DNA of 64,000 nucleotides from Nanobdellota archaeon (lineage in GTDB: Archaea; Nanobdellota; Nanobdellia; Woesearchaeales; ARS49): positions 2,692 to 66,691 of the forward strand of contig JBFYLW010000003.1 of NCBI GenBank assembly GCA_041305185.1, given 5' to 3'. Shown one piece after another: positions 63,345 through 63,985 of the stretch. The stretch's first letter is position 1, and each line of letters starts with the position of its first letter. The notes beneath the pieces were generated by a model. The model was not told the origin of the DNA. It ran no database searches and saw only the letters and a program-made list of their open reading frames with translations. The translations under genes were made by a program, and so were the position numbers.

Positions 63345-63779
63345 TTACAGCTTTCTTTCCAGACCGCCTTCTCCTGGTGGGTCTACTATTCTGATTTTGC
63401 ATAATGCGAAACTGTTGCCGGATTGGTCTTTTGTAGTATCCCAATATGCTGAGTCTGCAATTGTGTTTTCTCTCTCGTCAACTAACACGTTTCCAGTGCC
63501 TTCTTCTTTTTTCACGTCCAGCTGTTTTCCGTAGATGTTGACTGAAAAATTTGGCTTGCTGGCTATCAGGTTTTCGACGTCTCTCTTGTAGATTTCTGTC
63601 AGGGCGTCTATCTCGCATTTTTGCAGTACGAATTCGACTGCTCTTTTGACGCTCATTCCGCCTAGTTTGGCTTTTTGGTCTGTGCTGACGAATTTGTAAT
63701 TTATGCAGTTTCCTTCGTCTGCTTTTGCTGCGTAGACTTCTACTACTGCTGGTTGGTCTCCAAAATTCATTTTTGTCAT
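63345..63779 (-). CDS. ubiquitin-like beta-grasp (ThiS/MoaD-like) protein with GG followed by 5-residue tail
   Basis: C-terminus 'FALCKIRIVDPPGEGGLERKL' resembles ThiS/MoaD '..DGDEVAIIPPVSGG'; 4-nt overlap with next gene. Confidence 0.4.
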   Translation of the reverse strand: MTKMNFGDQPAVVEVYAAKADEGNCINYKFVSTDQKAKLGGMSVKRAVEFVLQKCEIDALTEIYKRDVENLIASKPNFSVNIYGKQLDVKKEEGTGNVLVDERENTIADSAYWDTTKDQSGNSFALCKIRIVDPPGEGGLERKL

Positions 63780-63985
63780 TTCTTGTCCTCCTTGCGTTTC
63801 TTGATTAATCCGCCCAGGTTGAATTCCTTGGGCTTTGTTTTATCGGGTGTTTCAGGTGCCGGTGTTTCCTTTTTTTCTCCCAGCAGATTTCTTATTTTGA
63901 ACAGCGTGTTGAATACTGCCTTGAAATGGATGTTGTGCGGATTCATTGAGATTTGTTTTATCGCGGTTGAGCAGTTTGCCAGCAT
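63776..63985 (-). CDS. small basic protein with internal LGG followed by K-rich tail
   Basis: 69 aa; '...KEFNLGGLIKKRKEDKK'; first visible gene of the operon (window ends 15 nt upstream). Confidence 0.25.
   Translation of the reverse strand: MLANCSTAIKQISMNPHNIHFKAVFNTLFKIRNLLGEKKETPAPETPDKTKPKEFNLGGLIKKRKEDKK

Follow-up and report, generated by a model that had tools for sequence, protein, structure and literature searches.

A candidate ubiquitin-like modifier in a diverged, putative conjugation operon of DPANN-type archaea

Results

Operon layout and conservation

The DNA analysed here (the window) is a stretch of 64,000 nucleotides from a Nanobdellota archaeon of the Woesearchaeales (assembly GCA_041305185.1, contig JBFYLW010000003.1, positions 2,692 to 66,691), at the end of which lies a minus-strand operon encoding a 144-residue protein with a Gly-Gly motif close to its C-terminus, a JAMM/JAB metallopeptidase and an activating enzyme of the ubiquitin type (E1). 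An earlier, sequence-only reading had proposed that the 144-residue protein, together with a 69-residue product encoded beside it, is the precursor of a ubiquitin-like protein (Ubl), trimmed by a JAB peptidase before activation by an E1. Here, we describe the family of the 144-residue protein, its predicted structure and its gene neighbourhood, and weigh the evidence that it is a conjugated modifier.

The operon begins with a gene for a ClpX/HslU-like AAA+ ATPase, followed by genes for a protein of ~490 residues, the 144-residue protein, a protein of ~405 residues (404 in the window), the JAMM protein, the E1 and finally a coiled-coil protein (Table 1). At three of the junctions, neighbouring genes share 4 nt in an ATGA-type overlap (the stop of the ~492-residue gene with the start of the 144-residue gene, the stop of the 404-residue gene with the start of the JAMM gene, and the E1 with the coiled-coil gene); the overlap between the JAMM and E1 genes is 71 nt long, and a 36-nt gap containing GGAGG separates the 144-residue and 404-residue genes. 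A scan for promoters and terminators was uninformative. The window ends inside the ~492-residue gene; the rest of this gene, with the AAA+ gene upstream of it, lies on a near-identical metagenomic contig of 11.5 kb (L001), so that the operon does extend beyond base 64,000, a point that the earlier reading had raised.

Table 1. Features of the operon and of the C-terminal tail of the 144-residue protein.
Feature	Position	Strand	Basis
ClpX/HslU-like AAA+ ATPase, operon head	beyond the window; L001:6072-7613		NCBIfam ClpX, 7e-35
C-terminal 74 codons of the ~492-residue protein, truncated by the window end	63776..64000	-	open frame to base 64000
144-residue orphan protein, candidate conjugated modifier, BilA-equivalent position	63345..63779	-	open reading frame, family, synteny, AF2 model
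G138 codon	63368..63366	-	read from sequence
G139 codon	63365..63363	-	read from sequence
LERKL tail, proposed propeptide; proposed JAMM cut after G139	63348..63362	-	
404-residue protein, candidate E2-like C-terminal domain	62094..63308	-	motif and position
632-residue protein, N-terminal JAMM/JAB metallopeptidase domain, long helical Lys-rich C-terminal part	60199..62097	-	motif
JAMM motif codons	61804..61845	-	motif
530-residue E1	58677..60269	-	Pfam ThiF, 6e-30, in two stretches
1150-residue coiled-coil protein, last operon gene	55228..58680	-	open reading frame; ~1100-residue counterparts after E1

All loci recovered place the 144-residue gene in this same operon. The gene order was found again in L001 and in the orthologous loci L007/L008, L009, L016 and P0011, these orthologous loci showing the full arrangement, and parts of it in three others (L005, L015 and L004). 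In every locus examined, a gene of the 404-residue type follows the 144-residue gene; a ThiF-domain E1 lies further downstream, past the 404-residue and JAMM genes, in the window, L007, L009, L016 and the P0011 locus. The AAA+ gene is conserved as operon head in L007, L008, L016 and the P0011 locus, and the coiled-coil gene is conserved downstream of the E1 in orthologous loci whose contigs reach it. ClpX-type unfoldases are unusual in archaea.

A rare protein family with a conserved glycine tail

Translation of the open reading frame confirmed that the 144-residue protein terminates in IRIVDPPGEGGLERKL, i.e. ...PPGEGG-LERKL, as had been read earlier. A word-indexed homolog search returned only the query itself, and exhaustive HMMER searching was therefore needed to reveal the family, which has 16 representatives among 1.84 billion proteins, with three further members added by a profile search. 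Family members are 132–173 residues long, and the 144-residue protein is a conserved, previously unannotated protein. Two much longer proteins with weak matches to the family, P0013 (1788 residues) and P0015 (1940 residues), contain no individually significant Pfam domain stretch and are probably spurious matches, and a 158-residue gene lying upstream of P0006 in L016 was ruled out as a paralog.

A glycine two to eight residues from the C-terminus is retained in at least one modifier copy at all ten loci for which DNA sequence was available, and seven of the ten share the pattern G-[LI]-[EV]-x-x-L. The tails read GEGG-LERKL in the window, SG-LEYKL in L007, DG-LVKKLI in L009, LGG-LEAVLR in L004, NG-LEAVLRK in L011, VG-LENLIK in L018, LGG-IEDRLSN in the first copy of L005, DGG-KLGYK in the second copy of L015, LG-DE in L016 and QG-SS in L006; the modifier of the P0011 locus ends FDG-KVQINN. 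Two loci carry tandem duplicates of the gene (L005:445-906 and 960-1388; L015:167-574 and ~597-1016), and in each pair exactly one copy keeps the Gly-Gly and tail, suggesting that there is selection on at least one such copy per system.

A Gly-Gly followed by 2–12 residues at the C-terminus occurs in 2 of the 99 open reading frames of at least 100 residues in the window, against about 3% expected by chance. Because this is the chance level, a lone Gly-Gly tail is not significant, and the signal resides instead in conservation and gene context. A 163-residue protein on the near-identical contig (L001:1638-2129, ending NGGG-RTDKTG) was rejected as a further candidate of this kind and attributed to chance; its ortholog in L007 ends KEKNDL.

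Predicted structure of the 144-residue protein

An AlphaFold2 (AF2) model built with a 17-sequence alignment (mean predicted local distance difference test (pLDDT) 90.5, predicted TM-score 0.83) shows a compact alpha/beta domain spanning residues ~11–132, with strands at residues 11–17, 25–30, 79–82, 85–91, 98–101, 114–117 and 123–132 and helices at 33–41, 44–54 and 59–74; a single-sequence model (pLDDT 40.6) was discarded. Confidence declines after residue 132, dropping across 131–140, and falls below 50 at residues 139–144, and the Gly-Gly is therefore placed in an exposed, flexible tail, directly after the last and most conserved strand (consensus EIRV), as in ubiquitin-type modifiers. Structure prediction had been named as a check by the earlier reading, and the Gly-Gly proved not to be buried in the model.

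Foldseek searches of the PDB and BFVD with this model returned nothing at E<0.1. The weak matches of highest probability are ubiquitin-fold proteins, namely Tunisvirus ubiquitin (TM 0.52, target-normalised) and a bovine viral diarrhoea virus ubiquitin-insert protein, together with the PI3K Ras-binding domain, USP7 Ubl domains, TBCE and EccD. A beta-grasp fold is therefore unproven, and we consider it only somewhat more likely than not. The ThiS/MoaD-like beta-grasp proposed from the sequence was not confirmed: no sequence similarity to any Ubl was found, and no Foldseek match was significant. A search of the PDB with the family profile gave only RelE3 (E=0.02) and RhsFi (E=0.07), and a relation to RelE3 was set aside, no RelE/ParE structure being present among the Foldseek matches listed.

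JAMM, E1 and E2-like proteins of the operon

The JAMM motif, GSAHGHGKINVFYSDID, is an exact HxHx7Sx2D (H85-x-H87-x7-S95-x2-D98), and E19, H85, H87, S95 and D98 are invariant in an alignment of four orthologs, in a domain that Pfam barely detects (Prok-JAB, E=0.11). The JAMM protein of the window ends SSLGQTRTEYNSQ. Two orthologs carry Gly-Gly close to their own C-termini, KLRGG-PSYHFARK in L015 (L015:2306-3973) and IRLGG-EYVS in L007 (L007:10818-12542), and that of L009 ends without a Gly motif; judged from the sequences, the Gly-Gly ends may reflect self-processing, self-conjugation or chance.

The N-terminal part of the E1 matches the inactive adenylation (regulatory) domains (IADs) of Uba1, SAE1 and NAE1 (1e-6 to 2e-4), and its C-terminal domain retains GxGxxxN, NIARQ and GCFDN..AR, giving in the alignment the layout of an IAD followed by an active adenylation domain (AAD) with an intact adenylation site. 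A crossover insertion of ~55 residues is followed by GQSC, in which C477 is the only invariant Cys of the region. In a phmmer search of the PDB, the E1 matched eukaryotic E1s and TcdA, and BilD was not among its matches at E<=1e-3.

The active domain of the E1 also matches ThiF and MoeB models, and a C-terminal Gly-Gly is typical of sulfur carriers, so we considered whether a ThiS/MoaD-like protein and a ThiF/MoeB-type adenylyltransferase might serve cofactor synthesis or tRNA thiolation here, with no conjugation taking place. The scores argue otherwise, lying far under the ThiF/MoeB equivalog cut-offs (77 against 275 bits in NCBIfam), as do the eukaryote- and Bil-like layout of the E1 and the gene content of the operon, which has a JAMM protein, an E2-like protein, an AAA+ ATPase and a giant coiled-coil protein and lacks thiamine, molybdenum cofactor or tRNA-thiolation genes. 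As the 144-residue protein is also without ThiS/MoaD similarity, we regard a sulfur-carrier system as very improbable.

In the 404-residue family, the motif Y-x-H-[PF]-A-x(8-11)-Y-x-x-[LM]-C-I, which includes H322 and C335, is invariant across six orthologs, as is a second S-C (within PSCK). The H...C segment resembles the HPN...C active site of E2 conjugating enzymes. No link to E2s was detected by Pfam searches of each member, by PDB profiles of the whole protein or its C-terminal domain, or by hhalign against UbcH5b.

A spurious small open reading frame at the window edge

The second proposed precursor, the 69-residue product of 63776..63985, proved not to be a small protein. Its frame stays open to base 64,000, the last of the window, and in L001 the same frame forms the C-terminus of a 492-residue protein (L001:7615-9093, plus strand), whose orthologs in L007, L008 and L016 have 480–501 residues. 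Both translations do show a Gly-Gly followed by a short tail, as expected for two separate Ubl precursors beside a JAB gene, and the window protein indeed ends FNLGG-LIKKRKEDKK; its orthologs, however, end NAKGFFNKK, TSLIIKKPKK, NLASFLAKKK, ..EREEENEK and ..GLIGAMKEE. Because it is absent at the ortholog C-termini, this Gly-Gly is lineage-specific, the only recurring feature of the ends being a hydrophobic stretch followed by a basic one. With no upstream stop in the window and full-length genes elsewhere, the idea of two small precursors is refuted, and the case illustrates that scanning for Gly-Gly tails at window edges yields artefacts. The statement that two candidates lie next to a JAB gene was correct in placing the JAB gene in the same operon; the 404-residue gene stands in between, and the second candidate is no small gene.

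A 443-residue paralog of the ~492-residue protein (BLASTP, 3e-16), encoded in the divergent gene set of L001 (L001:338-1669, minus strand), has no such tail. It contains a G-S-x6-D-I-D stretch that is reminiscent of pol-beta-type nucleotidyltransferases.

Comparison with known conjugation systems

The gene order of Bil systems is Ubl, E2, JAB and E1 (BilABCD; 10.1101/2023.09.04.556158). The archaeal operon has the same order of candidate modifier, E2-like protein, JAB/JAMM and E1, in which the JAB and E1 identities are verified by motifs and those of the E2 and Ubl are positional or motif-based. The IAD and AAD layout is shared with eukaryotic E1s and BilD (PMC10557695), and the E1 described here combines it with a Cys after the crossover insert. 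Processing of BilA offers a precedent for the tail, since BilC trims BilA after Gly97 and 12 BilA homologs carry overhangs of 2–9 residues (PMC10557695; 10.1101/2023.09.04.556158). The differences are nevertheless considerable. The hosts here are archaeal, no sequence match to Bil proteins or models was found for the proteins of the operon, and the 144-residue, 404-residue and JAMM proteins have no significant PDB or family matches. BilA domains superpose on ubiquitin (~1.7 Å), whereas the modifier is not recognisably ubiquitin-like by Foldseek; the E2-like and JAMM proteins are several times larger than their Bil counterparts; and, whereas BilD has a four-Cys zinc site, the E1 alignment shows no obvious zinc-binding Cys pairs. 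Finally, the core is embedded in a cluster of ~12 genes, with the ClpX-like AAA+ ATPase, the ~490-residue protein and its paralog, and TPR, HExxH and ~1100-residue coiled-coil proteins.

Bub systems (6E/DUF6527) contain an E1, an E2 and diverse Ubls, with a JAB that cuts the precursor right after a conserved Gly, BubCD trimming BubAB after G229 (PMC11601596). They demonstrate that conjugation can persist even where the components have diverged so far as to be difficult to recognise. They also have fusions (Ubl-E2, JAB-E1 or E2-E1), a homodimeric E1 without an IAD, Tyr/Ser oxyesters and the DUF6527 serine protease, none of which was seen here.

In type II CBASS (cyclic-oligonucleotide-based anti-phage signalling), E1/E2/JAB modules are able to conjugate proteins that are not of the beta-grasp fold, and the best matches of the E1 adenylation domain among defence systems are to Cap2 (the PADLOC Cap2 E1-E2 model, 1e-11, and the NCBIfam Cap2-type E1-E2 model), with a JAB present in both settings. 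By analogy with Cap2 and Cap3, whose targets are CD-NTases, the E1, E2-like and JAMM proteins might act on the C-terminus of a large operon protein, the 144-residue protein having some other role; the Gly-Gly ends of the ~492-residue protein in the window and of the JAMM orthologs in L015 and L007 would fit such a scheme. Neither end is conserved, however, the JAMM proteins of the window and L009 being counter-examples, and the E1 is a separate IAD and AAD protein rather than a Cap2-type E2-E1 fusion. Family searches detected no CD-NTase or effector, and we consider a CBASS-like arrangement improbable.

Sampylation (SAMP/UbaA/HvJAMM1) and the Caldiarchaeum and Asgard systems resemble the operon in being archaeal and in combining small Gly-Gly-ended modifiers with a JAMM/Rpn11-like peptidase and an E1; in the ubiquitin system of Caldiarchaeum, the E1 is accompanied by an E2 as well as an Rpn11-like peptidase (PMC5654768). 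SAMPs, in contrast, are ThiS/MoaD-like proteins of ~70–90 residues that work with a single-domain UbaA and without an E2, and the UbaA model scores 22.6 bits here against a cut-off of 450. In the Caldiarchaeum and Asgard systems, the modifiers are true ubiquitin homologs that work with canonical UBC E2s and a RING E3; none of these was detected here. By sequence and by architecture, the operon is not a member of the Bil, Bub, CBASS, SAMP or Caldiarchaeum/Asgard systems, and it probably represents a new archaeal form of Bil-like conjugation that has diverged strongly.

Genomic setting

The window is cellular DNA, encoding a NiFe hydrogenase, a B12 radical-SAM enzyme, an M50 protease, an NAD(P)HX dehydratase and a thioredoxin-reductase-like enzyme. 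At 90% identity, the hydrogenase belongs to a cluster that carries the label Candidatus Woesearchaeota archaeon, and the metagenome-assembled genomes with orthologous loci are labelled Woesearchaeota, Bathyarchaeota and Methanosarcinales. Minus-strand genes coincide with a strongly negative AT skew (-0.3 to -0.45), which means that coding strands are markedly A-rich, and GC skew is above zero in all but two 2-kb windows. Long antisense open reading frames, such as 62977..63534 (plus strand), probably arise from this A-rich coding-strand bias. Elsewhere in the window, a 1021-residue protein (31424..34489, minus strand) has an APH-type kinase-like domain and a weak match to TCAD9 (ternary-complex-associated domain); it may be part of an NTP-dependent conflict system.

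Beside the operon, a divergently transcribed gene set is also conserved and includes a ~95-residue protein, a TPR protein, a ~820-residue HExxH protein and others. The N-terminal half of the ~820-residue proteins (L001:2110-4581 and L007:2656-5100, both on the minus strand) is repetitive; the proteins also carry HExxH (PHEMSH and PHECSH, respectively) and are possibly zinc metallopeptidases. The P0011 locus (JGI 3300072015) represents an abundant variant of the system, which appears in 55 blocks of the collection index, with contigs of up to 200 kb. At this locus, nine extra genes lie between the ~500-residue and modifier genes, among them one for a thioredoxin-domain protein and an 83-residue open reading frame.

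Discussion

We propose that the 144-residue protein, although it cannot be placed in any known Ubl family, is an attachable, functionally ubiquitin-like modifier of an archaeal (DPANN-type) conjugation operon, a reading to which we assign a probability of roughly 55%. The earlier notion of a precursor with a Gly-Gly and a tail, trimmed by a JAB peptidase and activated by an E1, fits the 144-residue protein because the genes of a two-domain E1, an intact JAMM and an E2-like protein accompany it in conserved synteny, in the BilA-B-C-D order, because the Gly tails are retained across loci and because its Gly-Gly is predicted to be disordered; for the 69-residue product it was wrong.

Several observations weigh against this proposal. 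Ubiquitin and many Ubl structures are present in the PDB and BFVD, and the Foldseek search nonetheless found none of them at E<0.1. The protein belongs to no Pfam, NCBIfam or PADLOC family, and hhalign comparisons of its family with Ub, NEDD8, SUMO1, Urm1, ThiS and MoaD gave probabilities of at most 0.9%. The Gly-Gly is not invariant, many members having a single Gly, the distance from the Gly to the last strand varies, and the Gly is absent in 3 of the 19 modifier copies. The residues after the Gly are conserved (L-E-x-x-L), which is unusual in a disposable propeptide and may point to a docking motif; this conservation suggests that the tail is recognised, be it by some other partner or by the JAMM protein, for which it would form P1'-P5'. 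The family also conserves three charged residues (E14, K38 and D101), which could reflect an enzymatic or binding role. Lastly, the E2 role of the 404-residue protein is assigned from its motif and its position in the operon, and is to be read as putative.

The main rival explanation draws on many of the same observations. The 144-residue protein could be an accessory subunit, adaptor or effector that is never conjugated, with G-L-E-x-x-L acting as a degron or docking motif that the ClpX-like ATPase, the JAMM protein or the E1 would recognise. The conserved tail pattern, the conserved charged residues and the lack of any significant structural or sequence match to a Ubl would all be consistent with this, as would the ClpX/HslU-like unfoldase at the operon head, a class known for reading C-terminal tags, and the weak match to the RelE3 toxin profile. 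However, the RelE match has no Foldseek support, and in some members only two to three residues follow the Gly (G-DE and G-SS), too few to form a docking helix. Moreover, the E1, E2-like and JAMM proteins need a free, flexible C-terminus to act on, and the locus holds no other conserved small protein with a Gly-Gly end. We therefore regard an unconjugated partner as unlikely, while treating it as the most serious alternative to the proposed modifier.

If the 144-residue protein is a conjugated modifier, it would be made as a precursor from which the JAMM protein cuts LERKL after Gly139. The two-domain E1 would then adenylate the exposed Gly, with a thioester probably formed at C477, and the tag would move to Cys335 of the 404-residue E2-like protein and from there to target lysines. 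The JAMM protein may also be able to reverse the modification. The AAA+ ATPase and the ~490-residue and giant coiled-coil proteins might work either upstream or downstream of this cascade, for instance in the recognition or unfolding of proteins that carry the tag.

In its fullest form, this scheme suggests that DPANN-type archaea have an undescribed tagging pathway whose tag, either of a new fold or an unrecognisable beta-grasp, is matured by a JAMM protein, activated by a two-domain E1 and coupled to a ClpX-like unfoldase. We advance this only tentatively, as possible rather than probable. In the searchable literature, we found no Ubl system described from DPANN archaea or linked to ClpX. 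Few complete E1, E2, deubiquitinase and Ubl cassettes are found outside eukaryotes, the examples being Bil, Bub, Caldiarchaeum/Asgard and CBASS-type modules, and such cassettes are central to the debate on the origin of ubiquitination. The cluster described here would add an archaeal, DPANN-associated lineage to these. In sequence, the N-terminal domain of its two-domain E1 most resembles the regulatory domains of eukaryotic E1s, and its modifier eluded all of our sequence and Foldseek searches. Its linkage to a ClpX-like unfoldase makes a prokaryotic pathway of tagging followed by unfolding testable and, if the proposal is true, it would stand beside ubiquitin-proteasome and Pup-Mpa as an analogous but independent 'tag-and-unfold' system.

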